NCBI GenBank assembly: GCA_029977385.1
Contig: JAPOKZ010000003.1
Location: 1-58,553, forward strand
DNA from: Methanobacteriota archaeon
Lineage (GTDB): Archaea > Thermoplasmatota > Poseidoniia > Poseidoniales > Thalassarchaeaceae
DNA: 58,553 bases
Direction: 5' to 3'
The notes beneath the pieces are model-generated. The model saw nothing but the letters and a program-made list of their open reading frames with translations, ran no database searches and was not told the DNA's origin. Position numbers and translations under genes: made by a program. Positions within the stretch are counted from its first letter, which is position 1. The number at the start of each line of letters is the position of its first letter. Shown here piece after piece: positions 2,091 to 54,720 of the stretch.

Positions 2091-2121
2091 AATGGGCCCC
2101 CCGATTGAATGAATATGAAGA

Positions 2122-2403: not shown

Positions 2404-2416
2404 CAGTAATCACCAT

Positions 2417-2728: not shown

Positions 2729-2738
2729 TTTATCAACC

Positions 2739-35249: not shown

Positions 35250-38200
35250 TTATTCCTGGAAATCTGGATCGGGTATCCATTCCTCTGATTCGGAGTCCCA
35301 TAGCCAACCGGGGTGGTCTTCGTACCTTTCTAGTCCTGTTTCTTCCTCAGTAATTTCATTCGAATCTTCTCCTGACCACCATTCTTCACCTTCAGGAATT
35401 TGGGCTGGTTGCTTCACCCCCTCATCATCTTCTACCTCTATTCCGATGAATCCTGTGAAGAATGCCAGAACCAGGAGGGCCGCGAGAGTTAGCACGACTA
35501 TTCCTATGACTACGACCATGCTAGTGGAGTCTGATGTTGGTTCTCCCTTGGATATGGGGGTCACTTCTGTAGTTTGGCCGGCATATGAGAATTCAGGAAT
35601 GGAGGATTCGCCTTTGATTCTAGAGGCAGGGACTCCAAGTTCCCATGTTCCATCTTCCTGAACAACTGTGGTATTCACAGGATTTCCGCCGATTGATACT
35701 GAGACTTGCTTTCCCGGTAGTCCAATTCCAGAATATATTGCAATTCCTTCCGAATAGACCCAAGTCTGGTTGGGCTCTTGAATTGTGAATTCCAAAGGAA
35801 GTACCCGGAATGTGACTGGTAGGGAGTTAGCCTTCGAGTCCCAGGCATCTGTTGCGATGAAAATAACATTGTTTAGAGTCCATGCATCCATTTCCTCCAC
35901 ATAGAACAGCATATCTGCTGGGTCATATCGAGCTATCCCATCAGTTCCGACCCCCACAACTAGCGGATATATGTCGTCGGAGTCGATGGAGGGATCATTG
36001 TAAACTGACATGAACTGGATATCATTATCAATATCTGAGAAATATTCATTCAGATCTATCTCCACTGTTGTGCACTTATCAACCGAAATAGATTCGGTAT
36101 CACAATAGAGAACAATCTCGCTCTGCCAACCGGATTGGGAGAACTCTGGTTGATTGTTCCCGACGTTAGGGGGGTTGTCTGCGGTGATTATCACATCCAC
36201 CCAACTACTGTAGTCAATGCCATCATAAGAGCGGAATCTTAGTTGATACTCTGCATCGTGTCTAAGTTGGGTGGTATCCCAATTAATCTCCCACTCACCT
36301 TCTTCCGAAAACTCGCCTGTACTTGTTTCATGGACGGTGACGTAGTCGTTAGATACGTCTCTTACCTCTAAATCTACTCTGGTAACCCCTCCATCGAAGT
36401 CTCTGGCGACCCCACTGAGTGAAGTATCAGTTGATGAGGGAACGCGTGTCCCCGAGATAGGTTGGTTTACGCTAATCGTTGGCTGGCTGTTTCTGTTGTC
36501 AATTGTCAGAGTGAGAGTTACTGGCTGGCACTCATCTACTTCGCCTATGCAGAAGTCGGAGTCTGATGCCCAAATCGTGAATGTGTAGGTTGTCAGTTCT
36601 CTTGGCCTAGTACTGAAATCCCATTCCCAGCCCCAAGTTCCATCTTCATTTGTCTGGACTGGGCTAGTAACCTGGTAATTTGGGCCAGAAATATCCATGT
36701 ACACAAGGCCAATATCGCTATTGCAGTCTTCAGGGCAACCGTATGGGTCTTGGGCGAACCCATCGAAAATTACTGATCCCTCGTCATGTGATGAAAATGA
36801 ACTAGGGGATGTGACGAATACTGTGGGTGGTTGTGTGTTTAGTTTGATTGTCCTGGATACCACTGGGCTGTAATCTATCCCATCGAAGGCTCGGAATTCG
36901 AACGTGTAATCTCCCTCTCCCGCCATACCAGTCATGTCGATACTGTAGTACCATGAGCTGAAGGGCCTGTTGAATCGCGTTACTTTACCCTCATCTACAC
37001 CACTAGTGTCAATTGCATATTCGGCACTCTCCCATGATCCAGTAAATGGATTCCTGACCTGTACTTCGTGAACGTATCCGCCCTGGTCCCATTGTGCCCT
37101 CTCGTCTGTGGGATAGCTGTTGGCCAGAGTCCCATCGTATGCGCTTCCTGTGATATTGACTATTCTTCGGAATGAGTGGCCATCTTCCTGTGTAACTATT
37201 ACCGTCGGAGCCTGATTCTCAAGGTTAGCAGTCTCTTGTAGAGAGTTCTCTTCTAGTGTGAATTCTCCCGAGTAGTAGCCATAACCGAATCTATATGCGG
37301 TATATCTGTACAAGGAAAGTTCCCTTGTTCCTGCTGAGTAGTCGCAGCTAGGATCGGCTGTGTCCACAATCAGGTCGCCGTCATTGTCAATTCCGTCAGA
37401 GCAGGAGTCTTCGTACTCGTCATCGGCGAAGCCATCCGGATTGTCGCCGCCCCCTAGTCCTCTGAAATCAAGATGGAAGTTTGAAGGAAGTGCGATCCAG
37501 GGGGTGAATCCATCTCCTCCAGAGTTGACTCGGTACAAGTCGTTTCCGAGTGCATCCTCAACTATGACTAGGGCATCACTGACTTTTTCCCCCCCAATTA
37601 GAGTTTGGAATCTTACCAACTCGGCCCTACTCACTTGGACTGCAAAGTGTGTTGGCTGTGTAGCGATTTTCACCTTTGATAGGTCCAAGTTAGTCAGATC
37701 TGCGAAAGTGAAGACTGTGGAGTTATTATCCATGCTAACTCCCAGTGGGAAGTTCCTGGGAGTCATGTTCTGACAATTATTACAGTCCTTAACCGGAGTT
37801 GGGATAATGGCTCCTTGGAATTGATTGTCGGGCCATGCCTCCTGGTCTGGCCAAGATAGTTTTACTGGGTATTCTCCACTAGGAGGCGATGGGATATACT
37901 CGGACTGTGCTGTTACTGAGCTCTTCGTGACATTGTAAACAGATTCTGCTTGGTTCCAATCGTTCTCAGAGAAGTAGGCTAAGGAGCCGTATTGCTGTGA
38001 GTCAGCATATCCACTATCGTAATTTTTGATTACTGCTCCGGTCTTCTGGATGTCGAAAGAATTCCGTTGGATGTCCAAGAGCGAGCCCACGGCCCTAATT
38101 CCATCTGCTGTACCACTTGCGGTGATTATGTTGTCGTACATTGTCACCCCTGTCAAGTATGCATGTAAAACGGGACATGAGAACTGTCCGCCCCAATTGG

Positions 38201-39539
38201 TATCGCTGCTGCACGTACCGGCTCCATCGTATGAAATCGAGTTGTTTGCCAGGTAGAGTCTTGATGCTGCTTGAATAGAATAAGAGTACATTCCCGCAAC
38301 TACCGGGGTGAGGGAAGTTTCGAAGATTGAGTTGTTCTCAGCGATTACATCGTAAGAACCACCCAGCCATAGTCCGAAATATCCACCTATGGGCCCAATC
38401 TCATTCCCGTGGATATGGGCCTCGCTATTGTATACTGCTACCCCTGAACCTGATGCAGCCCCTCCGATTTCATTATCGGAAATGTCCACAAGTGCCCCTG
38501 CTGCTGAAAATATCCCTGCACCATCGACTGTTGTAATTTCGTTGTTGGAAATATCGAAGTTGAAAGATGTCCCTCCAACTGCCTTCTTCCCATTCAAGTC
38601 AATACCATTACAATTCACATTGATTGCAGAGTTTGTTACGCTACCGGCTGACGTCCATAGTCCAATTCCGAAGTCGCCGGATTGGATGTCAGCATTGTCG
38701 ATATCGATAAATGAGTTCTCGGCCCATATTGTATGCCTGCCATTATCTCTGTTCCCACAGCCGTTGTTAGTTCCAGTCAAGGAAATATCAGACAAGGAGA
38801 ATGGACTCACAGATGAGCCTGAAGAATAAATTTGGAGAGCGGCGCCAACTATTCCGGTGTTGGCATCTATTCCAACTGCAAAGTCTCCACCATTGAATGA
38901 GGGTTGGGCTAGGTTAGTAGTTAGTACACTGGAGGTATTAATTTGATTGAAGGACAGTTCTGTGAGAGTTGGGCTGGCACCATCTAGGACTAGGGCCCCA
39001 TATCGAAACTCCCCCACTGCAGAAACATATTGTGGAATTCCCCAAGCACTATCGAAATTAACGTATCTCAAACCTGTTTCGGCTAGATCGATAGAACTCC
39101 TCATCAGGACTCCCTCGCTGCAAGAAGGGTCATTTATCCAAATCTCTTGATTGCCATAGCTCATCCCGTAGCACTCCCCTGTTGCACTTGCATTGACTGG
39201 CTCACTCCACCTTAGGTTGATCCTCATTGCTGGGCCTGCATTGGAAGAAGCCCCGCATGATGCGACTCCGGCGCAAAGACTCCCCCTTACATCGAGATGC
39301 GTTCCGTTGGGAAATTCAATCGTTGCCCCGGGGTTGATTATGAGTTTAGCACCAGGGGCTATCGTTACATCGCCAGTGAGTGTGTGTACCCCTGCCCAAG
39401 TCTCAGTCCCAGTAATGGTGCCTGATGTCGTCTCATTAGAAGCTGAAACAGTACTGGCTGGCAATGAAAGAGAAAGTAGAATACTGAACAGAAACAATCC
39501 GGTCAGAGACAAAGACCGTAACTTTCTGTCCCGGGCCAT
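35250..39539 (-). CDS. giant surface protein: right-handed parallel beta-helix (PbH1/NosD-like) region plus Ig-like repeats, C-terminal TM anchor and acidic Trp-rich tail
   Basis: - Signal peptide ...LLSLSLPASTVSA.
- About 600 aa of G/N/S/I-rich beta-helix-type repeats (e.g. NNEITTVDGAGIFSAAGALVDISDNEIGG).
- A Cys/Asp-rich insert CSDGIDNDGDLIVDTADPSCD.
- At least four ~100-aa Ig-like repeats ending in F(R/D)..DGIDYS-type motifs.
- TM helix MVVVIGIVVLTLAALLVLAFFTGFIG (about 35445-35518), then a tail of about 64 aa. Confidence 0.9.
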   Translation of the reverse strand: MARDRKLRSLSLTGLFLFSILLSLSLPASTVSASNETTSGTITGTETWAGVHTLTGDVTIAPGAKLIINPGATIEFPNGTHLDVRGSLCAGVASCGASSNAGPAMRINLRWSEPVNASATGECYGMSYGNQEIWINDPSCSEGVLMRSSIDLAETGLRYVNFDSAWGIPQYVSAVGEFRYGALVLDGASPTLTELSFNQINTSSVLTTNLAQPSFNGGDFAVGIDANTGIVGAALQIYSSGSSVSPFSLSDISLTGTNNGCGNRDNGRHTIWAENSFIDIDNADIQSGDFGIGLWTSAGSVTNSAINVNCNGIDLNGKKAVGGTSFNFDISNNEITTVDGAGIFSAAGALVDISDNEIGGAASGSGVAVYNSEAHIHGNEIGPIGGYFGLWLGGSYDVIAENNSIFETSLTPVVAGMYSYSIQAASRLYLANNSISYDGAGTCSSDTNWGGQFSCPVLHAYLTGVTMYDNIITASGTADGIRAVGSLLDIQRNSFDIQKTGAVIKNYDSGYADSQQYGSLAYFSENDWNQAESVYNVTKSSVTAQSEYIPSPPSGEYPVKLSWPDQEAWPDNQFQGAIIPTPVKDCNNCQNMTPRNFPLGVSMDNNSTVFTFADLTNLDLSKVKIATQPTHFAVQVSRAELVRFQTLIGGEKVSDALVIVEDALGNDLYRVNSGGDGFTPWIALPSNFHLDFRGLGGGDNPDGFADDEYEDSCSDGIDNDGDLIVDTADPSCDYSAGTRELSLYRYTAYRFGYGYYSGEFTLEENSLQETANLENQAPTVIVTQEDGHSFRRIVNITGSAYDGTLANSYPTDERAQWDQGGYVHEVQVRNPFTGSWESAEYAIDTSGVDEGKVTRFNRPFSSWYYSIDMTGMAGEGDYTFEFRAFDGIDYSPVVSRTIKLNTQPPTVFVTSPSSFSSHDEGSVIFDGFAQDPYGCPEDCNSDIGLVYMDISGPNYQVTSPVQTNEDGTWGWEWDFSTRPRELTTYTFTIWASDSDFCIGEVDECQPVTLTLTIDNRNSQPTISVNQPISGTRVPSSTDTSLSGVARDFDGGVTRVDLEVRDVSNDYVTVHETSTGEFSEEGEWEINWDTTQLRHDAEYQLRFRSYDGIDYSSWVDVIITADNPPNVGNNQPEFSQSGWQSEIVLYCDTESISVDKCTTVEIDLNEYFSDIDNDIQFMSVYNDPSIDSDDIYPLVVGVGTDGIARYDPADMLFYVEEMDAWTLNNVIFIATDAWDSKANSLPVTFRVLPLEFTIQEPNQTWVYSEGIAIYSGIGLPGKQVSVSIGGNPVNTTVVQEDGTWELGVPASRIKGESSIPEFSYAGQTTEVTPISKGEPTSDSTSMVVVIGIVVLTLAALLVLAFFTGFIGIEVEDDEGVKQPAQIPEGEEWWSGEDSNEITEEETGLERYEDHPGWLWDSESEEWIPDPDFQE

Positions 39540-39587: not shown

Positions 39588-40850
39588 TCAATTTGCATCA
39601 GGTGAATCGGGGGTCTCGCTGCCAATTCCGAACTCTTTCTGAACCTGATTTGACCACTCAACTGCATCTAGTAGGCCATATCCCCTCTTGTCATCGTGAG
39701 TCTGAGTATGCTCTTCTGTTTTGTCAGCCGAATTAGCCAGCGCAACCTTGACTAATCGCATCTCTTGCTCGTCAATTTCTCCATCATCTCCAGCAATTTG
39801 TTCACCGTGAATAGCCAGTATGAGAGCCAGTGCACCAGTAACCATCACAGTGGAGTCGCTAGTTCCTGTTGAGAAGGCGTAGGGAGGGTCCCTCTCACTG
39901 TCTATGCAGGACCAGAGGTCAACTCCGGGAGCTAGGATCTCGGGTTTCTGGTTCGGGAACGTCCGATTTTGACCTGTTTCTGGGTCAACTAATGACCCCA
40001 CGGCACTATCTTTCCAAGGATCTCCGGATTTTCCGTGGGCCCCAACAGCAATGACTCCCGGGAGGCTTGCAGGCGATGAAACGTCTGAAGAGTCCTGCTC
40101 TGGATCAAGATTTCCCGCGGCTGCGACTACGAAAATACCCTCTCCGAGAGCCTCTCTTACTGCTTCTATGGTATCAGAGGAAGAAGCGAAAATGGATCCT
40201 GGCTCAGAACCTAGACTGAGAGAAATTATGTCGGAATCCTGAGATATTCTGCACCATCTTATGGCTTGAGAGACCATTCTTTCATTGGCTGACTTGCCAT
40301 CTGGGCCTAGTGCAATAGCCACTGATAACGAAACTTCAGGGGCCGCCCCTACAAATGATCCGTTTGCAACTAGCAGCCCGGCCATCAGTGTTCCATGGCT
40401 AGCCAAGCCGATATCTCGGATTGGATCGTTCACCTCGGTGTAGAAGTCACGGAAGCCCTCCAAGGACAAGTCATAGAAGTCGGGATGGGAGATGTCTATC
40501 CCGGTGTCTACTATGCATACATTGACCCCGTCGCCCATTGTTCCAGAACGCTGAAGTTCTCTTATTCCAGAGTCTTCGAAGGCCCATTCTGAATCTAGAA
40601 CATTACCAAGTACAGAGTATATTGAAGGATAGACCAGCATTATTGAGACTACAATGGCCGAGAATCCTACCGCCCCCCATGGCCAAAGAAATTTGATTAG
40701 TGGGTCCATTGGCCATCTCAGTTTCCTTGCTTCCTGGTCTGTGAGGCCATATGCCTTTCCGGGATAACCCGGTGCGTCCGTGTCCACTGCAGTCAGTAGG
40801 CTTGAATCCTCAGGCTCTGGCATGAGTTCGAGATGCGAGATTCCGCGCAT
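39588..40850 (-). CDS. membrane-anchored subtilisin-like serine protease (peptidase S8)
   Basis: N-terminal TM helix (FLWPWGAVGFSAIVVSIMLVYPSI). Asp motif VCIVDTGIDISHPDF (Asp codon 40506-40508) and His motif SHGTLMAG (His codon 40395-40397). The Ser motif GTSDSTVMV (Ser codon 39858-39860) lacks the usual M-A-x-P context. Confidence 0.9.
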   Translation of the reverse strand: MRGISHLELMPEPEDSSLLTAVDTDAPGYPGKAYGLTDQEARKLRWPMDPLIKFLWPWGAVGFSAIVVSIMLVYPSIYSVLGNVLDSEWAFEDSGIRELQRSGTMGDGVNVCIVDTGIDISHPDFYDLSLEGFRDFYTEVNDPIRDIGLASHGTLMAGLLVANGSFVGAAPEVSLSVAIALGPDGKSANERMVSQAIRWCRISQDSDIISLSLGSEPGSIFASSSDTIEAVREALGEGIFVVAAAGNLDPEQDSSDVSSPASLPGVIAVGAHGKSGDPWKDSAVGSLVDPETGQNRTFPNQKPEILAPGVDLWSCIDSERDPPYAFSTGTSDSTVMVTGALALILAIHGEQIAGDDGEIDEQEMRLVKVALANSADKTEEHTQTHDDKRGYGLLDAVEWSNQVQKEFGIGSETPDSPDAN

Positions 40851-40881: not shown

Positions 40882-43800
40882 TTAGAACGGGGCGCTGACC
40901 CGTCTGCTCGGCCTTCTGGTGAAGTATAGTAGAGCAGCTAGTAGCATGGCTAGGAAAGCGTATGTTAGGTACTGAAGATTATCATTCTCTTCGGAGCTGG
41001 CCCAGAGTTGAGCTTCGAATACACAAGATGACTCTCCCTCGGGTAGATTTTCAGCGCATGGTTCCGATATCTCTGCAGTGAGTTCCCCCTCAATGTAGAA
41101 TTTGATGAAGTACTTCTTTGGCTCGTCAAACTGAGTGAAATCCATATTAATCAAGAATGTAGCCTCACTATTTGCTGGAACTGAACCGCTGGAAGTTGCA
41201 TTGACTCCGACGAAATTTTCACACCTAATGTCTGAGCATAGTGCTGCAGACAAGGTTACGCTGTCTGCGTCTACATTTCCAGTATTGGAGATACTCAAGG
41301 AATATGTCTCAATTTCCCCATAGGTTGCGAAATCGCTTCCAAGAAGATCGACAGAACCTCCATTTATGGAAAGGGATGGTGCGTCCATTACCAGTATTGT
41401 TTCTCCCTGGTATGAGTTGTTATTCTGATCAGTGACTGTGAAAGTGATTTCTTCTGTGTACTGGCTTGGGAGTTCTGTCTCGCTCGATCTGACGAAAGTG
41501 AAGGTTGCAGTACCATCCGAGAATGGCGATGCCGGTTGAGTACTCGGGCCGGCGACCTCCCACCAATCACTCTGTTCGAATTCGAAGAAGAATAGCTCAT
41601 CTGAGTTACCTATGTTCTTGAAGGGTATCTCCATCGTAACTGCTCTTTCATCTATATCGAAGTAGACGTTGTCTGGCTCATATACCTCTAATCCCCTGAC
41701 CGGGGGAACTTCTACTGTAAGTTCGAGTTGAGTCGAGTATCCCTGGTTTGTTGATAGTTTAACGAGGACCTTGTGACCCATAGGGAAGTGATGTGCCGAA
41801 CCTACGTTTGCAGGAACGACTCGAATTTTGATTATCTCCGATAGGTCAGAGTTTCCGAGTCCCAAGTCGAAAGAGTGCATGTTCGACCAAGATCCGGTAG
41901 AGTTCTGGAACTCCACACTCCACTGGGCTCCGTCAGCCCCTGGGACCGTACCGACCGCTGTGTACTCGTCTAAGGAGTTGTGACCTTGGTAATCCACTGT
42001 TACGTTGAAGTACGCGTCATTGTACTTGCAACCAGGGACCTGGTTCTCGAAGAGCCCCTGCCCAAGTGGGAAGTCATCATCAGAGTCTATAGTCCCATCT
42101 TCATCATCGTCTGGGTCTGCGTTGTCGCCTATTCCGTCTCCATCGTTGTCGTTCCACTCGCTTGAGTCAAGTGGGAATGCATCCTCACCGTTAATCACAC
42201 CGTCTCCATCAACGTCGTTTGTGCATGTTTGGTCTAACTCATTTACTAGTACCGTCTCTTCGCCCTGAACAGCTAGAGAGACATCTTGCTTGGAAACTCT
42301 CTCAATGCTGAGTGTGCTTAGGGGGCTTTCCTGTCCTGCCCTAATTGTCACTCCCTTACCTCCCGAGTAGGAGACGTTCCTGCCCTCTTCAACCAGTTCG
42401 AAGTCACTGGAAGTCTGAATAGTCCCAGGGAGAAGTAGTAGAGATAGTGTGCCGTCCTCATCCAGCTCCTCGACCCACGACATGGAGTTGAAATCAATTA
42501 CGAGTTCATAGCCTTCAATCTCGATTAGTTCGTGCTCTGCTCCTTCGAAGTCAAGCCAACTTGTATCGAGATTGAGAATTCCCCCTATAGTGAGTTCTGA
42601 GTCCACCGATCCTCCTTCCACACCAACATCGATAGGGTCGATTGATACCAATCCCTGGCAGTCAGGTGATGTGCCGGAGGTCGTTGAGTATGCCACCCAG
42701 CTACCTGGCTGAAGAAGTGTAGTCCAATCCCCTTCACTGTTTCCCGAGACCTGCACACGATCTCTGGCGATTCCATGAGAGGGGATAATGACAACAGACC
42801 AGTCACCATTGGAGACGCAATCCTGATCAAGATACGAGATGGTTCCGGAGACCTCTACCTCGCCTGCAGAAATCTCAATATCCTCATTGAGTGATGATTC
42901 GCCGAGTTCAACCGTTGTGTTCTGCGAGTCGAATCCTGCCTTCTCCACGGAAATGTTCCATGAGCTCAATGAGGGCAGGAAGGTGGACCATTCTCCGTCC
43001 TCGCTAGTGATGATTTGTAGGCTCTCATCGTTTCCTGCGAGGTTAACTGTTGCATTGGCAAGACCCTCTGAGAATCCTGGAGTGCCATCTGCATCAAGAT
43101 CCCAGAATACCTTGCCGCTAAGCCTAACTAGCTTCTGTACGGTCATGTAAATTTGGTGATCGGGCCCCACGGTAACGCCCGACTCAATCAGAGTTGAGTT
43201 CTCTAGGAGTATCCTCACCCCATTTTGGCTGGTCTGGTTAACCTGTACGTTCCACAATCCTGGAACAAGTCTGATTTCTACGGCTTGGTCAAGTCCATCA
43301 ACCGAAGTCTGGAAGGAGCCTAGTCCTTCTTGTGACGTGACTGTGATTTCTATTTCCTCTGCATTGGCTAATTCAGATGATGATTGAAGAGTCAGGGCAA
43401 CATGAGCTAACTCTTGTGTGTAGAAGTTGTATCTGGTCCCTGCTGAATCCTGATTCACAGATATGTCCATTCTAAGTCCCTCTAAGACTTCAGAGTCGGT
43501 CTCGAAATCGTCGACAATCACTATCCAATCGCCTTCGTGAAGGTACTCTACTAACATCCCCCCCTCGTCTGTTAAGAACGTCTGAACCCATCCACTGTCA
43601 ACTGACTCCAGTTTTATCTCATGATTGGAGAGAAGTTCTCCACTCTCATTTCTAAAGGTGATATTGGTCAACCATCTTGGTTCGAAACCCACGGAACGTA
43701 CTATCGTTGAAGCCTCAATTTCCACATCGAATATTTCGTTTGTGTCATACAGAGTATCGAATGGTTCGTCTGCAGAAGAGTTGGCCCTCTCGACTACTAT

Positions 43801-46800
43801 TCTGTATCTTCCGGGTTCCAGCGATACTTCGGCAGTCCCAGAGCCAATCCACTCTGGGCCATCAGATTCTACAGTGTAACCAGCCCCGTTGGGAGAGAGT
43901 GGCTTGATCTCGAAAGGATAGTTTACAGGCGTACCGTTTGATGCGTTGTTGTCCCCCTCGTGATCGATGAAGAAGTCGATTTGTACGGTACTGTTCTCAA
44001 GTGGTAAAGCGAGTAATTCTACTACTCCCTCCATCGAGGAATTGACTTCCTTGATCACTGAATTGGATGACATCCCTCCTGCATCAAGGGTAAATGACCA
44101 GTTGCCCATAGGCAGGAGCATGTCGAAGCGCCCCAGGTCATCAACCTCCTCTCTCCAAACGGCAGTAGTTTCGCCATCGAGGTTGTTTGCTAAGGCATGG
44201 ACAGGATACCATCCAGAGAATCCTTGATTGTACGTATTACCTTCACGGTTCAGGCTTACTTCGCCCAGGACCATCATCGAGTCCGTGAGTTCTATTGTTA
44301 TATTTTCCATCCCTTCTTCTACTTGGAAGCTGGTACCGTTTGAGTAGAATCCTCCGGCACCGACCATCCTCTCGACTGTTGCCTGGACAACTGCGCCACG
44401 AGGTAGGAGGACGCTGAACTCGCCGAATGAGTCTGTTGAGGATATTAGGGTGAACCCTTCCCATTGGAAAATAATCTGTTGGTTATTAACTCTGGATTCC
44501 AGCTGAGACGCTGATCCATCCTTATCTGGTTTGTTCAATACAATTCCGTTCACAGATTGACTGACGAGGAACTGGAATGATTCGGAGATATCTGATTCTG
44601 CGACCTTCACCCTTTGCCATAGTTGCTTGTCATCACCCAGAGTGTAGTTCAGAACCCAATCGCCGTGAAGTAATTCTGCATGGTAGGTTTTTGTGTCGTT
44701 ATCGAAAATTGCCGATACTGGTGCCAGATTCTGATCCTCAGGCAGGAATTGCAACTCTAGGTCGTCCACACTTGTTCCTTCGTCTGATAGTGTGAAGGCG
44801 ATATCGGATGTTCTAGGGATTTCCGATGGGAATGAAACCAAGGTTCCTTGATCGGATTCAAAGGTGAAAATCTGTGACAATTCTGGGAATCCGTCCTCGT
44901 CTATATCTATTTCAGCGATGTAGGTTCCTGGCACTATTGGACCCACTTCGAAAGATCCAGTTTCATCAGTGGTCGTGAAGCATGGCTGAGTTATTACCCC
45001 CCGGCATTGTATCTGAGAGTCCGCGCTTGATCCATTGATTGAGAATATTGAAATCCTTTCATCGGAAATTGGTTGACCCGAATACAACGACACTTGGCCC
45101 TTTATTGCGCCCCCGTATATCGAAACTGGGGATTGAACATCTGAGGAAGATAGAGGAATCCTGAATGGAGTTGTCAACTCCACGGGACTTCCTGTACCGA
45201 AATCGACCGATAATACGTATTCTCCCGGTAGGGCGTCTACAACGTGGAAAGATCCTGGGCTGACCATGGGGCCACTGAAAAGTGCGTGTCCCGAGAAGGT
45301 CCCAGTACCGTTTATTGTCCCATAGGATGATAGATTGTGATTTGCATCTGTGACGAATGTACCAGAGCCTATGAAAGTGGCTTGGAATAGGTCTCTAGTA
45401 AACTCGCTGATCTCAATCGAAGTGAACTTTCCAGAGCCGTTAATTGTCCCGTCAATAATGTAGTTGCCCTCGCTAACTAAGCACGCGTCCGAGCCATCCG
45501 GGACTGAATCTCCAGAACAATCAGGATAGGTGCCTGAGATTGAGCCATCGAATGTGCCCTTTCCGGAGAATTGTCCCTGCCCAGTTATGCTATGGTTGTC
45601 ATAGATGGTCTGGGTATGAGATCCGGTGAATTCCTGAACAGAAACTGAACCCATGCTCTCAACTGAACCCTCTCCAATGAAGGTCGCTTCTCCGGTTCCT
45701 GTGAACCTCAAATCCTCGCCCTCCATGCTTCCGTCGGAGGTCATGGCAACATAGGGATGGATGGTAACCTCATCCGAGGATGGAGTGAGTACGACTTGTG
45801 CCGAGATTACCGGCTCTCCGTCGAAGTCCAGTTCTCCTGACCACTCTAGGATTCCGGCAGCGGACGAGGGGGAAACTGAGATAGGGGCCTGAATAATTGA
45901 TTTGCCGTTACTATGACCGTCTATTCCAGAAATATTCACGACCGTTTCAGATAGCCATGTAGAGCCGTATACGTTTCCGAGAATCCCAGTTACTGCATTC
46001 ACATTCCTATTTTGGGAGCTCTCGACGAATAGTTCTTGCATGGAGGAGCCGGATCCCGTCATCAGCGAGGATCTGGCCGATTCTAAGTCTGGCTCGCCCG
46101 AGAAAGCGGATACTCGGATCTTTCCTGCTGGCACCTTGAATGAGAAAAATCCGTCTTCATTAGCCTGAGTGCTGCCGATAGGAATCCAGTATGTTCTGGA
46201 ATCTCTATCGACGACATGACTCTCATTGGCCTCTTCCCCACTGAATGCATCCCTCTCAATCAGAATCCTAGCATTCGGAACTGGGCCAATTCCATCGAGA
46301 GATACGGTGCCCTCCAGAGTAGCGCCGCTGTAGTACTTCAGAATCTTCACGTTTCTATTAGAGTCGTAGATTGAGCCGCAGTACTTGTCAGCCTTGCCGG
46401 TTAGAACGAAATCTGTCCCGTTGCTTGTGTTGGTAGCGGCATTGCTGATATCTATGCTCTTGGAATCGAATGAGATGGCGCTACTGTAGGTGGGAATGGA
46501 GGAACCTGTTGGAATAACTCCTTCTTCGAATTGTGTGACCTCCCATGGCCCTCCCGACTGAATGGCTGACCAGCCTGTTGAGAGGGTAGCGTCTGTTGAC
46601 AGGGTAACGTCTGTCAGCTTGGTTGAGTCTGTAACCGTAGAAGCCGATCCGGTAATCTGGATTTCTTGGCAATGGGATCCATTGGTCGGATCGTACCAAT
46701 TGGATAGTACGAAGTGATTCATCATTGCCCCGGGAAGAGCCATGGAACCCTGTAGATAGCTCCCTGGAGTCCCTGTTAGTGAGTTTGGTAGAATCCAAGT

Positions 46801-49800
46801 AGATGGGGTGTCGGCATCTCCAACCTGTCCGCTGATTGAGGGCAAACCAAGGGTCGATGTCCCATAACCCACATACGTCCTTGCTATCATTGTATCAAAG
46901 AAACCTGCCTGGTGCTGGTAATTCCTGTCCGTGAGTTGGATCATATCCTCGCCGGTGGAAGCGCCCGATGCCTGTGCCCTGAGGTCGGACATCTGTTGGT
47001 CCAAGAATTCCTGGAGGGTCTTTGGACCCTGATTAGTCTCATAGGTAGTGGTGATGTAAGTATCCATATCTAGACCAGAGAGTCCTGTTGGTGCGTGGAA
47101 AATGCCCGAATATGCCCCCCTGTGATATGACTGGAAGTCCCGATACGCACTTCCACCTAATGGATAGAGGCGGTTATCCACAGCGAAGTATCTGATTTCG
47201 TGATTCCTTGCTGTTGTACTTCCATGGGATTCCTCGAAGTCGGACACCTCGTAGTTGTCGATAGATGAAATCTTGTGGTATACGCTAACGAGTTGGTCCA
47301 AGTCCAATGCGGCTGTTAGGAAGGCTCTAGCCATTCCAAACTTCGCATTAGTGCGGTGAATTTCCGTGGAAACGTCGTAGTAGTCGTCAATTATGTCCCG
47401 AGTGTATAGATAGCCACCGACGTTGTAGTGCTCGGCGTCTTGGAAATCGAGGATTTCGTACTCTGAATTCAACCCTGATCCTCTTGCGTTGTTGAATAAG
47501 GTTCTAGCCTCAGATAGATTAGCAGTGGGTTCTTCGTACTGTTGCCCTTCCTTGATGACAATGAACATATGGCCAGCATCGATCATGGGCATCCCATTAT
47601 CATCCAAAGGATTACCCTTGAGCATCTGAACCTCATCGTACTCAGCGACTACTGCCATGGATCGTTTTTCCAGGAACTCCAGATCCCTGTTCGATAGGAT
47701 ATCTTGGAATTCATTAATCTGTTCCTCGGACAATTCTGGCCCCAGTGCGGCGAGGAAATCTGACCCAAGATTTGCACCGCCATTCAATTTCTTGTCACCG
47801 AAGGCGAGTGTTGAGATGAACAAAGAGATAGTATCTTCCTGTCCCGAAGATAGGAGCATTGCTCCGCTACTCGGGATTCCTGACTGGAAGTTATCTGCCA
47901 CGGTAGGGTGATCCCCCGATGCTAGGGCTTGGAAACCATAATCCCACCAAGATACAAAGGCTGGTCTTTCGCTGAAAGGATCGTTTTTGTCCTGCTCTGA
48001 AAGCCACTCATATGCCTCATTCCAGCCCTGTCCACCGAAGCTTGGCCCAAAGGTTCCCATATACCACAGGCCCGATTCGCTAGGATCGTATTGTTCGCTG
48101 TTCATAACGGAGAACAAACCCAGTAAATCCTGGCGTAGAATATCTGGAGCCAAGTCGTAGATGCTCTGGTCCACTTCATTTGCCGACTTGTCATTGCCTG
48201 GTATGCCAGAATCGATCCCATATGTGGCATGCTGAGAAGAGATCAACAGGATTACCATGATCATAGCAGGAATTCCTGGCCTTGCCTTCGTTGCCGGCCA
48301 TAGGGATCTGAAACGAGTCCTTGGAGTGCCTATTCCTGAGTTTCTCCAAACCTTGGAAAATGCTGGCATTCCTGCGGCCCCCCACAGCATTGAGATTCCG
48401 ATACCCCCTACAACCGCCATAGCTGGAGTCGCGTTGATGATGAATCGACCTGCAGACCAAGACATGTAAGATGCGATTAGGGTCCAGAGACCCAATAGCG
48501 TTAGTTCTGATTGATTCTTCCTGCTTCCCCTCCAAAGGAGAATTATGGCGCACCCTATAGCAATGACAGCTACTATTGGGCCATAGGATGCGAATAGTCT
48601 TCCTCGATCAGGAGCTTGGGCCTCTCCAATCGTCAGGAAGATCTTGTTCTTGGAAAAGTAGAATCCACCTGTGAAGAGGATATCCCAGCCGTTGTACAGC
48701 TGCGCTTCCTGAAGAATGAAGAGTATCGCAAGAATCGAACCGAAAAGTGCGCTACCGCCCATTACTATCAGAAGCCATGGCTTGTCTCTGAATGAGCTGG
48801 AAATCCAACCCATAGCGAAAGTGAATCCGATGATGTAGAACATAGGTTGCATACCACTGGGGGCGAAGAGCAGGTTCATTCCCGGCCAAGCGTAGAACGG
48901 TGCGGGGATTAACATGGAAGTGAACATCATCTGAAGAGATGCAGATGTAAATTGTAGACTGTCCCTTCCCTTGAAGATGTTTACCACAACTTGGAATGAA
49001 TATGCTAGGAAGAGAATTCCTGGACCATAAACGAAACCCTTCCAGCCTAGTGCCATAATAGAGAATGCTATTCCCGACATTGTTGCATTTGCCATTAGGG
49101 CTGGATTGCGCTTCCAAGTCTCCCTAATCCCTGCAATGACATAGAGTGGATTTGCGCTTGTCGACTTGAAGACCTTCTTGTATTGGATTTGTTCGAGGCC
49201 TTTAATCCAGAAATATAATGCAATCGCCAGGAAGAGCATGGCGAATGAGTCGTGGTCAGCATATGCGAAGGTAGAACGGCTCAGATGTCCGGGCATTAGT
49301 GCAATGAGCCATGCGGAAATTATTCCCGCATTCCTGCTGTGTGCACGCGAAGCGATTCCTGCGACTGGGACAACAATCAGAGCCCCATAGATTGCTGGAA
49401 GTGAAGACATTGCCCACCATACTGCTTGCTCTGAAGGAATCTCAAGTAACCAAGAGAGGGCTATTCCACCTAGAGCCAAGGACCATGAGAATAGAGGAGG
49501 TCTTGGATTAATCCCACCCAATGGGTAAGCCCTGTCATGATCGTAAATCAGGTGACTCCTCTCAGCGATTACGTAATCGACGACACGCTTCATGTACCAA
49601 GGGTCGGAACCACCAGACATGTCCCAAAGTCCGGTTCCACTAGCGTTCATCGCGGGTATTACATTCCACGCTACTCGAACGACAAGAGCGGTGATGAATG
49701 CTAAAGATACCATCAGAAAGTAAGAGTTCTCATTCCACCAGACTCTGAATGGGCTTTTCTCCCTTCTAGGAGCAACATCGCCGAATACCCCTCTTGATGA

Positions 49801-50862
49801 AAAGAAGAATGCGAAGAAGTTCAACCAGAAACCCAGGAAAAACCATGTGAATGACTCGATGAATCCTCCCTGTGAAAATAGGGAAGGGAGCTCGTTTCCT
49901 ATTTCGTGGATGTGCCCGATGGAGTAGAGAATCCAGTTTACAGCTAGAAGAGATGCTATTACGTGCCATCCCTCGGCCCTGAAGAAAGCATGAGTGAAGA
50001 TTACCAGTGCGGTGAAAGAAGCCCATGACACCCCTAGATGGCTTCCCTCGGAGTACTGGGACAGGTTGTCTAATTGGCCCAACCAAATAAGTGGAATCAT
50101 GAAAGCTGAGAATATCAATGCTGAATATGCTGCAGCATCTGGGCTCTCCTTGATTGATGGGAGCATTCTGAAGAAACGTCCAGAGCCCTTATTTTCCACC
50201 GTACCCCTGACAAGAATCATTACTAAGATTCCAAGAGAAATTGAAGCGAGCCAAAATGAGAAGAATGCGCTTCCTATCGACTCTCTGACCGGGTCCACCA
50301 CCGCCTCCGAGTCATTTTGTGCGATTGCAAGTCCAGATGCATAAACCGCGGCCAATCTCATCCCTAGAATAGAGCTGATGAAAATGGAGGATTCCTCAAG
50401 CCTCCCAGATTCATTCAGTAAAGCCGATACCAACCCTACTAAGAAAAAGGTAGTTGCGAACATGTGATTGAAGGAGTCCGGATCAATAAAGTTGGAGACA
50501 GCGCCCAATGCAAGAAGGACAACTGTAAGGGAGCCGATTCGTGAGACACCTGACTCAAGAGGAATCATTCTTGATGATCTTCCGATACATGCGGGTACCA
50601 AGACTGATAGCGTAACAAGAATAGAGGAGTCGAGTTCGTTACCAAAATCCCTGCCCTCTAGAAATGATGTAACCAGAAACAAAGATAGCAACGATAATGC
50701 AATTGCAACTGGAGTAATCAGGTTACCAAATTGGGCATCCTTGGAGCCCTCTTTCTTCGCTTCCATCCCATCCACCGGACCTATTTGCCAATAATTCAGC
50801 ATCGCGCCGACCTGAACGGTTGTTTTAACCGTTCGTAGAACGGTCGGAGATAAGGGACTCAA
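40882..50862 (-). CDS. aglB: giant oligosaccharyltransferase AglB/STT3 fusion protein (3326 aa)
   Basis: - STT3-family motifs occur in order: EL1 SDPWY (Asp codon 49603-49605), ADHD (49249-49257), TIxE motif FLTIGEAQAP (48622-48633), WWDYGF (47932-47949) and the following PTVADNFQ.
- The core is preceded by about 375 aa containing about 10 hydrophobic helices.
- It is followed by about 1900 aa of beta-sandwich repeats, a TSP3 block (42068-42219), CARDB-like domains and a terminal TM helix (about 40921-40971).
- The track start is TTG at 50862; ATGs at 50802 or 50766 are alternatives. Confidence 0.9.
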   Translation of the reverse strand: MSPLSPTVLRTVKTTVQVGAMLNYWQIGPVDGMEAKKEGSKDAQFGNLITPVAIALSLLSLFLVTSFLEGRDFGNELDSSILVTLSVLVPACIGRSSRMIPLESGVSRIGSLTVVLLALGAVSNFIDPDSFNHMFATTFFLVGLVSALLNESGRLEESSIFISSILGMRLAAVYASGLAIAQNDSEAVVDPVRESIGSAFFSFWLASISLGILVMILVRGTVENKGSGRFFRMLPSIKESPDAAAYSALIFSAFMIPLIWLGQLDNLSQYSEGSHLGVSWASFTALVIFTHAFFRAEGWHVIASLLAVNWILYSIGHIHEIGNELPSLFSQGGFIESFTWFFLGFWLNFFAFFFSSRGVFGDVAPRREKSPFRVWWNENSYFLMVSLAFITALVVRVAWNVIPAMNASGTGLWDMSGGSDPWYMKRVVDYVIAERSHLIYDHDRAYPLGGINPRPPLFSWSLALGGIALSWLLEIPSEQAVWWAMSSLPAIYGALIVVPVAGIASRAHSRNAGIISAWLIALMPGHLSRSTFAYADHDSFAMLFLAIALYFWIKGLEQIQYKKVFKSTSANPLYVIAGIRETWKRNPALMANATMSGIAFSIMALGWKGFVYGPGILFLAYSFQVVVNIFKGRDSLQFTSASLQMMFTSMLIPAPFYAWPGMNLLFAPSGMQPMFYIIGFTFAMGWISSSFRDKPWLLIVMGGSALFGSILAILFILQEAQLYNGWDILFTGGFYFSKNKIFLTIGEAQAPDRGRLFASYGPIVAVIAIGCAIILLWRGSRKNQSELTLLGLWTLIASYMSWSAGRFIINATPAMAVVGGIGISMLWGAAGMPAFSKVWRNSGIGTPRTRFRSLWPATKARPGIPAMIMVILLISSQHATYGIDSGIPGNDKSANEVDQSIYDLAPDILRQDLLGLFSVMNSEQYDPSESGLWYMGTFGPSFGGQGWNEAYEWLSEQDKNDPFSERPAFVSWWDYGFQALASGDHPTVADNFQSGIPSSGAMLLSSGQEDTISLFISTLAFGDKKLNGGANLGSDFLAALGPELSEEQINEFQDILSNRDLEFLEKRSMAVVAEYDEVQMLKGNPLDDNGMPMIDAGHMFIVIKEGQQYEEPTANLSEARTLFNNARGSGLNSEYEILDFQDAEHYNVGGYLYTRDIIDDYYDVSTEIHRTNAKFGMARAFLTAALDLDQLVSVYHKISSIDNYEVSDFEESHGSTTARNHEIRYFAVDNRLYPLGGSAYRDFQSYHRGAYSGIFHAPTGLSGLDMDTYITTTYETNQGPKTLQEFLDQQMSDLRAQASGASTGEDMIQLTDRNYQHQAGFFDTMIARTYVGYGTSTLGLPSISGQVGDADTPSTWILPNSLTGTPGSYLQGSMALPGAMMNHFVLSNWYDPTNGSHCQEIQITGSASTVTDSTKLTDVTLSTDATLSTGWSAIQSGGPWEVTQFEEGVIPTGSSIPTYSSAISFDSKSIDISNAATNTSNGTDFVLTGKADKYCGSIYDSNRNVKILKYYSGATLEGTVSLDGIGPVPNARILIERDAFSGEEANESHVVDRDSRTYWIPIGSTQANEDGFFSFKVPAGKIRVSAFSGEPDLESARSSLMTGSGSSMQELFVESSQNRNVNAVTGILGNVYGSTWLSETVVNISGIDGHSNGKSIIQAPISVSPSSAAGILEWSGELDFDGEPVISAQVVLTPSSDEVTIHPYVAMTSDGSMEGEDLRFTGTGEATFIGEGSVESMGSVSVQEFTGSHTQTIYDNHSITGQGQFSGKGTFDGSISGTYPDCSGDSVPDGSDACLVSEGNYIIDGTINGSGKFTSIEISEFTRDLFQATFIGSGTFVTDANHNLSSYGTINGTGTFSGHALFSGPMVSPGSFHVVDALPGEYVLSVDFGTGSPVELTTPFRIPLSSSDVQSPVSIYGGAIKGQVSLYSGQPISDERISIFSINGSSADSQIQCRGVITQPCFTTTDETGSFEVGPIVPGTYIAEIDIDEDGFPELSQIFTFESDQGTLVSFPSEIPRTSDIAFTLSDEGTSVDDLELQFLPEDQNLAPVSAIFDNDTKTYHAELLHGDWVLNYTLGDDKQLWQRVKVAESDISESFQFLVSQSVNGIVLNKPDKDGSASQLESRVNNQQIIFQWEGFTLISSTDSFGEFSVLLPRGAVVQATVERMVGAGGFYSNGTSFQVEEGMENITIELTDSMMVLGEVSLNREGNTYNQGFSGWYPVHALANNLDGETTAVWREEVDDLGRFDMLLPMGNWSFTLDAGGMSSNSVIKEVNSSMEGVVELLALPLENSTVQIDFFIDHEGDNNASNGTPVNYPFEIKPLSPNGAGYTVESDGPEWIGSGTAEVSLEPGRYRIVVERANSSADEPFDTLYDTNEIFDVEIEASTIVRSVGFEPRWLTNITFRNESGELLSNHEIKLESVDSGWVQTFLTDEGGMLVEYLHEGDWIVIVDDFETDSEVLEGLRMDISVNQDSAGTRYNFYTQELAHVALTLQSSSELANAEEIEITVTSQEGLGSFQTSVDGLDQAVEIRLVPGLWNVQVNQTSQNGVRILLENSTLIESGVTVGPDHQIYMTVQKLVRLSGKVFWDLDADGTPGFSEGLANATVNLAGNDESLQIITSEDGEWSTFLPSLSSWNISVEKAGFDSQNTTVELGESSLNEDIEISAGEVEVSGTISYLDQDCVSNGDWSVVIIPSHGIARDRVQVSGNSEGDWTTLLQPGSWVAYSTTSGTSPDCQGLVSIDPIDVGVEGGSVDSELTIGGILNLDTSWLDFEGAEHELIEIEGYELVIDFNSMSWVEELDEDGTLSLLLLPGTIQTSSDFELVEEGRNVSYSGGKGVTIRAGQESPLSTLSIERVSKQDVSLAVQGEETVLVNELDQTCTNDVDGDGVINGEDAFPLDSSEWNDNDGDGIGDNADPDDDEDGTIDSDDDFPLGQGLFENQVPGCKYNDAYFNVTVDYQGHNSLDEYTAVGTVPGADGAQWSVEFQNSTGSWSNMHSFDLGLGNSDLSEIIKIRVVPANVGSAHHFPMGHKVLVKLSTNQGYSTQLELTVEVPPVRGLEVYEPDNVYFDIDERAVTMEIPFKNIGNSDELFFFEFEQSDWWEVAGPSTQPASPFSDGTATFTFVRSSETELPSQYTEEITFTVTDQNNNSYQGETILVMDAPSLSINGGSVDLLGSDFATYGEIETYSLSISNTGNVDADSVTLSAALCSDIRCENFVGVNATSSGSVPANSEATFLINMDFTQFDEPKKYFIKFYIEGELTAEISEPCAENLPEGESSCVFEAQLWASSEENDNLQYLTYAFLAMLLAALLYFTRRPSRRVSAPF

Positions 50863-52924: not shown

Positions 52925-52977
52925 TTATTTTTGGATAAACAAACAATAGATTGTTCGATCCGAAAGGGGTGATATTC

Positions 52978-54720
52978 ATGTCCCTATTTCGCAGCGGGAA
53001 GATAATGAGTAAGTTGGAAGCAACACTATTGACCATGGTCCTGATAATCTCAGTTTCTATGATTTCCATAAATGTGACAGCAGAGGGAGACGACATAATC
53101 ATCGAATCCGATATGACTTGGAATGACGAAATGTCCCTTTCACAGAACGTGAGAGTATTGAATGGGGGTTCTCTGAATTTGGTAGATTCGCAATTGACCA
53201 TTACCAATAATGTACAAATTTTCGTAGACTCTTCTTCTTCCTTGAGGATTGTTGATTCTGACATTTCTTCGGACAGCCCGCCAAGTGGGTTAGCAGGGTT
53301 TGGTTACTGCGATGAAACAAATATGTCAGCAGTTAGGGCAACCTCTTCCTCGGATCAAAATGTGCGAATGTACTTGCGTCCGATTCAAGGATTCTCTCTA
53401 GACGGTGCGACTGCACATTTCGGAGACGAGACTAAGGAGCTTTCCGGAGAGGAAGATTTCGTATCGTTAGGCAGTGGTCCTGTTGACATATGGGTTGGTT
53501 TGACCGGTCCACTATGTCACCCAGTTTCTCTGAGCGAGATTAGCATAGAGAAGAGTGGCCAGGATAGGATTTGGCGTGATGCAGCTGACTTTCAGAATCG
53601 GAACATGATGGCATATGGAGGAGCTGGCTTTACAATCGAAGTTGAGGGGCACATGGAGTCGAGTGGATCGTCTATTTTTGGAGGGACAATTACGGCATCG
53701 GGATCCCTGAGCATCAATGATACCTCCTTGGATAGGGTTGGCCCGATAATTTTGGAGGAAGACGATTCTTCTATCTTCCTCGGTGGAAATACTGAGTTCA
53801 ACAACAGCACAGACGATCACGACGTTAGAGCTAGGGGTTTCTCGACAATTGTGTGGGGGGACGATGTCATCGGCTCCGGAGAATTAACTGATAAGTGGGA
53901 AAGGAGGCTGGCTGGTCAGAGTCTTTCATTTGATTCGATGTATGTAACCTACGAGATTACAGGGATGCATAGGTTCCCGAGTTATTCCAACTTCAGCAAC
54001 GAAATGGGGGTCTCGTTCATTGACGGTGGAAGGGAGAGGGTAGTAGAGATATCATGGTCAGATGACAATTCTTGGGAGGTCGAAAGGGTTTGGAGCGAGC
54101 AAGCGATAGTAACGATCACAGAGTACAGGACTGCATGGAATCCTGAAGAGTCCGGGATTGGGGACTATGGAGGTGGGCAGTTCCAATTGGGTTGGGAAGA
54201 CGAAGTTTTCGTCAACAGTGCAACTCCGATGATTCGGTGGGTTTCTCTGGGCGCAGTTGACGATAACGGAGACCCGATTGGAAATGCCTCTGTCGGCGAT
54301 TCCGTGAAAATGGAGGCAGTGATAGAAAACACAGGATCTGCTGCTGCATCACTGGCAATAAATTGCGAGGATGTCAGCACCGGATCAACTGCGCAGATCT
54401 CACCTTCATTCCCTAATGCTATAATTGGCTCTGGTGAGAAGGTGACTATTCCATTCAGTTGGAGAGTGTCTACAGAAGGTGAAGACTCCCTTAGTTGTAG
54501 GATTCTAACCCCCACTCAACTAGTAGATGAGTTCTCTTTCGGAGGTGGTCAGATTTCTAGCATTAGCATAGAATGGTCTGAATCTATGGAAGAGGGTGGC
54601 TCGACAATTATCCCTGCCCTAATAGCCCTGGTAGTGGCGGCGGGCGTAGGTGGTTACTTCCTTCTCTCTATCTACACAAACACGGAAGAGGAAGACGATG
54701 ACTATCAGAGAACTCCCTGA
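52978..54720 (+). CDS. hypothetical surface protein (beta-helix-like N-terminal region, CARDB-like domain, C-terminal TM anchor)
   Basis: The ATG at 52978 is preceded by AGGGGTGA; the track TTG is at 52951. Signal/anchor segment LLTMVLIISVSMISINVTAEG. CARDB-like segment GDSVKMEAVIENTGSAAASL...IPFSWRV. TM helix IIPALIALVVAAGVGGYFLL, then the acidic tail EEEDDDYQRTP. The gene overlaps the gdhA 3' end by 16 nt. Confidence 0.7.
   Translation: MSLFRSGKIMSKLEATLLTMVLIISVSMISINVTAEGDDIIIESDMTWNDEMSLSQNVRVLNGGSLNLVDSQLTITNNVQIFVDSSSSLRIVDSDISSDSPPSGLAGFGYCDETNMSAVRATSSSDQNVRMYLRPIQGFSLDGATAHFGDETKELSGEEDFVSLGSGPVDIWVGLTGPLCHPVSLSEISIEKSGQDRIWRDAADFQNRNMMAYGGAGFTIEVEGHMESSGSSIFGGTITASGSLSINDTSLDRVGPIILEEDDSSIFLGGNTEFNNSTDDHDVRARGFSTIVWGDDVIGSGELTDKWERRLAGQSLSFDSMYVTYEITGMHRFPSYSNFSNEMGVSFIDGGRERVVEISWSDDNSWEVERVWSEQAIVTITEYRTAWNPEESGIGDYGGGQFQLGWEDEVFVNSATPMIRWVSLGAVDDNGDPIGNASVGDSVKMEAVIENTGSAAASLAINCEDVSTGSTAQISPSFPNAIIGSGEKVTIPFSWRVSTEGEDSLSCRILTPTQLVDEFSFGGGQISSISIEWSESMEEGGSTIIPALIALVVAAGVGGYFLLSIYTNTEEEDDDYQRTP

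Follow-up and report, generated by a model that had tools for sequence, protein, structure and literature searches.

A giant long-form AglB/STT3 protein with a sequon-rich ectodomain encoded in a Poseidoniales genome

Introduction

To our knowledge, every characterised AglB, PglB or STT3 comprises about 600–1,050 amino acids (aa). The best profile match of the protein treated here in the Protein Data Bank (PDB) is Archaeoglobus fulgidus AglB-L (entries 3WAJ, 3WAK, 5GMY and 7E9S, a chain of 875 residues), a structurally characterised single-subunit oligosaccharyltransferase (OST) whose polytopic transmembrane (TM) domain is joined to a C-terminal domain on the outside. The eukaryotic OST is a multi-subunit enzyme (STT3, ribophorin I/II, OST48, Ost3/6 and DAD1) whose domain logic is known from structures such as 6EZN and 6S7O. 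Here we describe an open reading frame (ORF) in a 58,553-nucleotide stretch of archaeal DNA, hereafter the window (contig JAPOKZ010000003.1, assembly GCA_029977385.1; Poseidoniales, Thalassarchaeaceae). It lies at 40882..50862 on the minus strand, the strand of all features below unless stated otherwise, and by sequence its product is an STT3/AglB-type OST. Like A. fulgidus AglB-L, it would be a single-subunit enzyme of this plan; however, the A. fulgidus protein has only about one quarter of its size and lacks a 10-TM N-terminal module, an array of β-sandwiches and a second TM anchor.

An original prediction, made from the sequence alone, had regarded this architecture as undescribed for an OST. 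As far as papers are concerned this still stands: no published description of a giant AglB/STT3, of the N-terminal module or of a sequon-rich ectodomain was found by searches of full-text literature, and the papers covered by them yielded no other protein that fuses a CarboxypepD_reg-type array to an OST catalytic subunit. An OST gene of marine group II (MGII, the Poseidoniales) is reported to be differentially transcribed in coastal metatranscriptomes, with no remark on its size (PMC9723583). Papers on Thermoplasmatales mention AglB without stating its length, and a search of a 2024 review on archaeal N-glycosylation for sequence sets, fusions and metagenomes gave no passage on such forms. 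The sequences themselves are public, however, and JGI, UniRef and NCBI give them the automatic annotation STT3 or ‘dolichyl-phosphooligosaccharide-protein glycotransferase’.

An STT3/AglB core with conserved catalytic motifs

The identity of the core, which the original prediction had based on motifs, was upheld by profile searches. The Pfam model STT3 (PF02516) matched residues 418–685 with 50 bits (curated cutoff 24.5 bits, E 4e-13). The best-scoring curated family was TIGR04154 (archaeo_STT3, the archaeosortase A system-associated OST), which matched residues 383–1006 with an E-value of 5e-47 over model positions 2–571 of 831. When the PDB was searched with a profile of the family, A. fulgidus AglB-L (3WAJ) headed the list with an E-value of 3.6e-12. 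In this alignment GGSDPWY (residues 417–423) pairs with GGNDPWY, aDHD with NDHH (ending at chain residue 163) and WWDYG with WWDYG; the last motif also aligns to WWDYG of 3VGP and of yeast STT3. We take the D of DPWY, the first acidic residue of the active site and part of external loop 1, to correspond to D47 of A. fulgidus AglB-L, and DHD to be the second motif, the DxD/DxH type that binds metal. Single-sequence searches of the PDB found fungal, yeast and human STT3 as well as C-terminal domains of A. fulgidus AglB-S; the yeast and human matches span both halves of the core, and the matched chains have 696–935 residues.

All five predicted motifs were recovered: SDPWY in the membrane domain (residues 419–423, 49594-49608), DHD (536–538, 49249-49257, with another DHD at 441), TIGE of the external loop 5 type (744–747, 48622-48633) and, in the soluble domain, WWDYG (972–976, 47935-47949) and PTVADNFQ (986–993, 47884-47907). 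Their conservation was determined in a set of at least 127 full-length Poseidoniales homologues (3027–3338 aa): DPW(Y/F), DHD, WWDYG and DNFQ are kept in 127/127 and TI(G/A)E in 126/127. At the sequence level TI.EAQ is invariant in distant relatives too.

Profile and motif matches place the STT3/AglB membrane domain at residues ~376–880 (48223..49737), where hydropathy fits about 13 helices. It is followed by the AglB soluble domain (residues ~881–1400, 46663..48222), predicted to be extracytoplasmic, which carries WWDYG and PTVADNFQ and further conserved segments, IRYFAVDNRLYPLGG...GIFHAPT and FFDTMIARTYVGYG, that are common to other Thermoplasmatota long forms. The core is thus present as proposed, and together with its soluble domain it reaches residue ~1400. 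An α/β subdomain is inserted at ~1005–1205.

A complete gene with collinear homologues

The ORF runs for 3326 codons from a TTG to a single stop at its end, in a window without any N, which confirms the claim of an uninterrupted frame; the start codon is discussed below. The protein search yielded, among the matches listed, 120 homologues from ENA, JGI, NCBI, Logan and Tara assemblies, all of 2944–3338 aa and with identities from 100% down to 39%. Near-identical proteins of 3306 aa are encoded on several independent ENA, NCBI, Logan and MGnify contigs. We aligned the window protein with 23 divergent homologues and found all 24 sequences to be collinear over their full length. Mean identity in this alignment was 75–86% in the core, 31–60% in the N-terminal module and ~40–77% in the ectodomain (40–55% in much of it), and only two stretches, 1401–1500 and ~2870–2950, are mostly missing from the other sequences. 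The gene order CarS, purD, giant STT3, S8 peptidase, 1,400-aa β-helix/Big_7 protein and AAA/TPR is kept in relatives whose proteins are only ~40–64% identical.

Since at least 127 homologues are collinear, the motifs are kept, and the same gene order and independent contigs recur, the giant ORF is, as judged by these sequence comparisons, a real gene. A chimeric join or a missed frameshift, for which the original prediction had asked for a check, would find some support in one member of the 90%-identity cluster that is only 1526 aa long. This member is encoded on a 643,630-bp contig (ENA ERZ28548082, contig_22728_pilon; locus L086), on which the giant gene, purD, the S8 peptidase and the β-helix protein are all split into several ORFs. 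Because its neighbours on this Pilon-polished contig are fragmented as well, we attribute the short member to generic indel errors of the assembly, and the case warns against judging ORF integrity from such contigs. With full-length homologues throughout the matches listed, near-identical proteins from independent contigs and a guanine-cytosine content that is flat over the gene and its flanks, the probability of an artefact is close to nil.

A long acidic ectodomain with a conserved junction and a C-terminal anchor

The region between the soluble domain and the C-terminal anchor forms an acidic, sequon-rich ectodomain of ~1,800 aa (residues 1501–3290, 40993..46362; 16% D+E, 4% K+R), slightly smaller than the ~1900 aa claimed before. 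It is preceded by a Ser/Thr-rich stretch (residues 1401–1500, 46363..46662) that is gapped in 53–73% of the 23 homologues; there, soluble domain and ectodomain are linked instead by a short segment in which two nearly invariant Cys stand about 17 consensus positions apart. The ectodomain opens with the conserved junction LKYYSGATLEGTV (residues 1505–1525, 46288-46350). It starts a block, residues 1501–1600, with 77% mean identity, on a par with the catalytic core, and its motif LKYYxGAxLxG is common to distant Thermoplasmatota long forms. This high conservation of the first 100 ectodomain residues and the motif shared with distant long forms suggest that the block and the AglB soluble domain meet in a fixed structural interface.

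The predicted modules of the ectodomain were found with different clarity. CarboxypepD_reg (PF13620) was confirmed, with one unit above threshold (residues 2599–2655, 47 bits versus a cutoff of 32.3) and further weak units. A hidden Markov model (HMM) iterated on the family revealed eight CarboxypepD_reg-like β-sandwich units at ~1561–1600, 1963–2000, 2113–2181, 2204–2273, 2400–2469, 2589–2653, 2704–2741 and 2770–2831; a self-BLAST of the protein had detected no internal repeats at E≤1, so that the repeats emerged only with the iterated HMM. Arrays of this prealbumin-like type, as in NOMO-type rods, are generic structural modules and uninformative on function; relatives carry faint precomputed matches to NOMO1-like, SdrD_B, SpaA and CARDB models. 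A Gly-rich region with GxGxF motifs is conserved at ~1600–1900. The CARDB/DUF11-like region (PF07705/PF01345) near 3179–3231 remained below threshold (DUF11 21.2 bits versus 24.6, TIGR01451 21.8 versus 24), with precomputed PF01345 or PF10633 matches in some homologues. In the TSP3-like acidic block (PF02412/PF18884 type; residues 2878–2933, 42064..42231) three DxDxDG-like motifs are visible, but the block is weak by HMM (Pfam TSP_3 E 0.7; NF047638 E 5e-4 over 2878–2933), and residues 2901–2950 of this stretch are gapped in 66% of the 23 homologues.

The second, C-terminal TM anchor (~3296–3314) was confirmed; it is followed by a short basic tail, predicted to be cytoplasmic, ...TRRPSRRVSAPF-COOH (40885..40995 for anchor and tail). 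The C-terminal end is strongly conserved in Poseidoniales, with APF in 119/127 homologues and F in 126/127, and the RRxxAPF tail could serve as a sorting, docking or quality-control signal. The tail consensus ...T(K/R)R..RR.(S/G)APF-COOH (40885-40920) occurs neither in the other large proteins of the window nor in the long forms from outside Poseidoniales.

The long form is widespread in Thermoplasmatota

In order to place the protein, we searched 50%-identity representatives with the core (residues 376–1400) using HMMER and obtained 856 relatives at E≤1e-3. The top of the list consists of Poseidoniales proteins of 3,146–3,228 aa with the core starting at 336–407. Next come about 100 clusters with 28–36% identity and 2,000–2,775 aa, which have the STT3 core at the very N-terminus and belong, where named, to Thermoplasmata or Thermoplasmatota. 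When GTDB species representatives were scanned, at least 492 loci proved to code for a relative, and the labels of the best 80 comprise DHVE2/Aciduliprofundum, Methanomassiliicoccales, Methanomethylophilaceae, Thermoplasmatales, Cuniculiplasma sp. SKW4, Halarchaeoplasma, Natronoplasma and others. The ORFs read in seven loci (labels Aciduliprofundum, Methanomassiliicoccales, Thermoplasmatales, Cuniculiplasma and uncultured archaeon) encode 2,076–2,180 aa. Uncharacterised long forms of this kind include those of Cuniculiplasma sp. SKW4 (2111 aa), Aciduliprofundum sp. (2076 aa) and Methanomassiliicoccales (2180 aa) as well as the proteins MEM3237739.1 and MCL4356568.1 from Thermoplasmata MAGs. 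Pfam searches of two such ORFs gave CarboxypepD_reg arrays in both and STT3 in the Aciduliprofundum-labelled one. The lengths of related proteins, whose tabulation had been proposed as a check, are 2944–3338 aa in Poseidoniales and 2,000–2,775 aa in other Thermoplasmatota among the sequences compared.

The other Thermoplasmatota long forms share with the window protein the core, the junction, the CarboxypepD_reg-type array, the anchor and the sequon-rich ectodomain. At the motif level IRYFAVD.RL.P, GIF.AP and F..M..R.Y.GY of the soluble domain and LKYY.GA of the junction recur. In a set of 83 non-Poseidoniales long forms a C-terminal hydrophobic anchor is present in 81. However, these proteins lack the N-terminal module (their core starts at ~20–170), are ~500–1,200 aa shorter and end in a basic cluster instead of APF. 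A PGF-CTERM-like end (PGF(E/G), TM helix and basic cluster) was observed in 7/83 of them (P0146, P0156, P0162, P0173, P0174, P0237 and P0242), a hint that archaeosortase A acts on the OST itself in some Thermoplasmatota; the window protein is without a PGF motif.

By these sequence comparisons, STT3 proteins of Thermoplasmatota have as their standard form one that carries a long ectodomain and a terminal anchor. As it is shared throughout the phylum, this form is probably ancestral to it. The presumed rarity of the architecture was thus not upheld: most of it is the phylum norm, and the protein is less exceptional than first held. Specific to Poseidoniales, among the sequences compared in this analysis, are the N-terminal module, several hundred to about 1,000 further residues and the APF end.

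Sequons are enriched in the ectodomain

The ectodomain of the window protein contains 29 N-X-S/T sequons, compared to ~17 expected from its composition. Across the family the enrichment is 1.5–3x, with z-scores of 2.6–10.4 in all 21 Poseidoniales proteins sampled, and 11 sequon columns are kept in ≥80% of the 24 divergent sequences; conserved sequons of the window protein lie at residues 1643, 1756, 1808, 1851, 2175, 2306, 2309, 2405, 2542 and 2987. No such enrichment was seen in the N-terminal module and the core, nor in a further 12 proteins encoded in the window, three of which are large and have surface-type domains: a 1429-aa protein with β-helix and Big_7 domains (35250-39539), a 1904-aa protein with bacterial TSP3 repeats (25984-31698) and a 1587-aa protein with S8 and CARDB domains (3402-8165). 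The 83 non-Poseidoniales long forms display the same pattern: median enrichment in the ectodomain is 2.3x with a median z of 5.7 and z>2 in 87%, while their cores show a 1.4-fold enrichment at a median z of ~1.

Because sequons are enriched in the ectodomain and neither in the core nor in neighbouring surface proteins, these counts suggest that a major substrate of glycosylation is the ectodomain of the enzyme itself. The enrichment also lends indirect support to the idea that the ectodomain is a surface or envelope component.

An N-terminal module of ten TM helices specific to Poseidoniales

Residues 33–375 (49738..50766) form an additional polytopic module, as had been predicted. AlphaFold2 (AF2) modelled it with ten TM helices at a predicted local distance difference test (pLDDT) of 84.8 and a predicted template modelling score (pTM) of 0.82. 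The loops contain 15 K/R inside versus 1 outside, in agreement with the positive-inside rule; the module would therefore begin and end in the cytoplasm and pass on to the first STT3 TM helix in canonical orientation. Its most conserved feature is a loop predicted to face outward, GH(I/L)HEIGNELP (residues 316–326), in which HEIGNELP is invariant or nearly so.

The module gave no Pfam match at E≤1 and no PDB sequence match at E≤10, and Foldseek returned no fold neighbour (best E 0.24 in the PDB, 0.37 in BFVD). Two possible origins were considered and rejected: neither an internal duplication (first half against second half) nor a duplicated partial STT3 (module against the STT3 TM region) gave any signal with hhalign. 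In the eight most divergent Poseidoniales representatives checked the core always begins at residue 336–407, and single-sequence phmmer detected the module in four of them with E-values of 1e-14 to 1e-59. None of the non-Poseidoniales long forms compared contains the module, and no stand-alone homologue was seen beside the shorter long-form genes at two loci. The module is fused to the OST in all Poseidoniales sequences examined. As this fusion is obligatory and the acidic/His loop is conserved and faces outward, a role in donor handling is a reasonable guess.

Discussion

We consider it fairly probable that the window protein is the Poseidoniales orthologue of the Thermoplasmatota long-form AglB, a competent OST that carries a heavily glycosylated surface ectodomain. 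As such it would be the working AglB of Poseidoniales and would move a dolichol-linked glycan onto Asn in N-X-S/T. From a cytoplasmic N-terminus the chain would pass through the 10-TM module and the ~13 helices of STT3 to the outside soluble domain with WWDYG, continue outside as ~1,800 aa of prealbumin/Ig-like β-sandwiches and return through the final TM helix to a short conserved cytoplasmic tail, so that the ectodomain would be tethered to the membrane at both ends. Since its sequons are strongly and specifically enriched, and many of them are conserved in position, the ectodomain most likely represents a heavily N-glycosylated surface structure, a glycocalyx or envelope scaffold borne by the OST itself. 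Glycosylation could occur during translocation by its own catalytic domain or by adjacent copies; the former is topologically possible because the catalytic part is made and inserted before the ectodomain is translocated. The N-terminal module would be an accessory membrane module gained in Poseidoniales, with its acidic/His loop on the side of the active site.

Several observations weigh against this reading. The TIGR04154 score of 160.8 bits is far below the NCBI cutoff of 450 bits, so that the protein is not a member of the family for which it scores best, and it ends in a TM helix and RRxxAPF instead of PGF-CTERM. The AF2 model of the core (residues 376–1400, 32-sequence alignment) is poor, with a pLDDT of 51 and a pTM of 0.36, and only the inserted α/β subdomain is confident. 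With this model the top 15 Foldseek matches are all STT3/AglB/PglB, among them A. fulgidus AglB, but at TM-scores of only 0.2–0.3. In OSTs the DK/MI motif shapes the +2 Ser/Thr pocket. Unlike A. fulgidus AglB-L, the window protein has no canonical motif (DxxKxxxM/I or MxxIxxxI/V/W) that we could identify after WWDYG, and phmmer of residues 1215–1400 against the PDB gave chance matches only (E ~1); FFDTMIARTY and YHRGxxxGIF are conserved, non-canonical candidates for this region. Finally, the conservation of sequons is in part a by-product of general sequence conservation.

The extensions could alternatively be working parts of the enzyme, in-cis accessory subunits comparable to ribophorins, OST48 and Ost3/6: the β-sandwich array and the terminal helix would pack beside STT3 and hold acceptors or the Sec translocon, and the N-terminal module would be in charge of the lipid-linked oligosaccharide, either flipping or delivering it or recycling dolichol phosphate. 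The domain logic runs parallel to that of the eukaryotic enzyme: the core is homologous to STT3 (6EZN and 6S7O are among the Foldseek matches of the core model) and lumenal β-sandwiches ending in a single TM helix, together with small polytopic subunits, have parallels in the extra parts of the window protein. The conserved APF tail and the HEIGNELP loop suggest specific contacts or chemistry, and the fusion is obligatory in the Poseidoniales sequences examined. However, the parallel is one of function only, between many subunits and one polypeptide: sequence and profile searches detected no similarity to eukaryotic accessory subunits such as ribophorin, OST48 or Ost3/6, nor to Wzx/MOP or other families, and the fold of the module has no neighbour in the PDB. 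Furthermore, ~1,800 aa are far beyond the need of an accessory subunit, and a glycosylated surface structure accounts better for the strong enrichment of sequons. We regard this arrangement as rather doubtful. A bolder reading, which we rate as unlikely, sees a single-polypeptide N-glycosylation machine that doubles as the main glycoprotein coat of the cell. Here the N-terminal module would supply the lipid-linked oligosaccharide, as the long-sought archaeal flippase/scramblase or in dolichol-phosphate recycling, and STT3 would modify its own doubly anchored 1,800-aa ectodomain as it emerges. If true, the heterotrophic archaea that are most abundant in the ocean would owe their envelope to such a self-contained machine, which would also correspond in function, but in cis, to the eukaryotic OST with its many subunits.

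Equally unlikely in our view is a polyprotein that is cut, for example by the downstream S8 subtilase, into an AglB of ordinary size (~1–1400) and a type I membrane glycoprotein (~1500–3326) acting as surface protein. The poorly conserved Ser/Thr-rich stretch 1401–1500 lies exactly between soluble domain and ectodomain, the ectodomain has its own C-terminal anchor, and in each of the four Poseidoniales loci read (L001, L002, L085 and L086) the gene that follows codes for a signal-anchored S8 peptidase (39588..40850 in the window, N-terminal signal-anchor helix at residues 63–81). Yet in most homologues this stretch is gapped and replaced by the short Cys-bounded linker, and residues 1501–1600 directly after it belong to the best conserved segments of the chain. 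Distant long forms have the junction motif too, and neither of their two loci read here has a protease next to the gene. Moreover, synteny extends over the entire neighbourhood, unrelated housekeeping genes included, so that adjacency weighs little. It is very improbable, finally, that the STT3 part is a mere anchor of a giant adhesin and that another AglB performs glycosylation. The protein is, like bacterial adhesins, very large and rich in β-sandwiches, but the catalytic motifs are invariant in at least 127 homologues and the core, not the ectodomain, is the best conserved part (75–86% versus 40–55% mean identity in much of the ectodomain). Domains specific to adhesins did not turn up, and the adhesin label of the original prediction has no specific support.

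By this analysis a whole archaeal phylum, including the globally abundant uncultured MGII, has an STT3/AglB-type OST two to four times larger than the characterised enzymes. Should the ectodomain be a major envelope glycoprotein, this would bear on the cell surface of Poseidoniales in encounters with viruses and grazers and in particle attachment. The 10-TM module is a candidate for a missing membrane step of archaeal N-glycosylation because it is an obligatory fusion partner of the OST without a known fold. The C-terminal part should be experimentally tractable, as names of cultured genera occur among the ~2,100-aa loci. Aciduliprofundum and Methanomassiliicoccus have cultured strains. Strains of Cuniculiplasma are in culture too (PMC5155288).

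Start codon, upstream element and further ORFs

Homologues mostly start at the equivalent of Met33 (MExxKE...), which is an ATG at 50766, while database gene calls start at Met21 and give 3306 aa. Upstream of Met33 we found the element GACCGTTCTACGAACGGTTAAAACAACCGTTC (50814..50845), in which three ACCGTTC copies (direct, inverted, direct) flank a TTAAAA box, an arrangement that resembles a promoter combined with an operator palindrome. Three loci have the core AACGGTTAWAACA without any change although their proteins share only ~40–64% identity, with the counterparts at ~2990–3020 in L085 and ~9925–9945 in L001. This TATA-like conserved element falls within the first 32 ‘codons’ of the TTG ORF, and residue conservation upstream of Met33 is presumably better explained at the DNA level. 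Since most homologues begin at Met33 and promoter-like DNA is conserved upstream, the TTG start is improbable. The true start is probably the ATG at 50766, with a coding sequence at 40882..50766 (3294 aa plus stop).

Two further ORFs of the window are without a Pfam match. A 589-aa ORF on the plus strand (52951-54720) has a hydrophobic stretch at its C-terminal end, after which comes an acidic tail ...TEEEDDDYQRTP, and has counterparts of similar size and position in L001 (631 aa) and L086 (573 aa). The other, of 179 aa (25464-26003), lies on the strand of the 1904-aa gene and shares 20 nt with the 3′ end of that gene.

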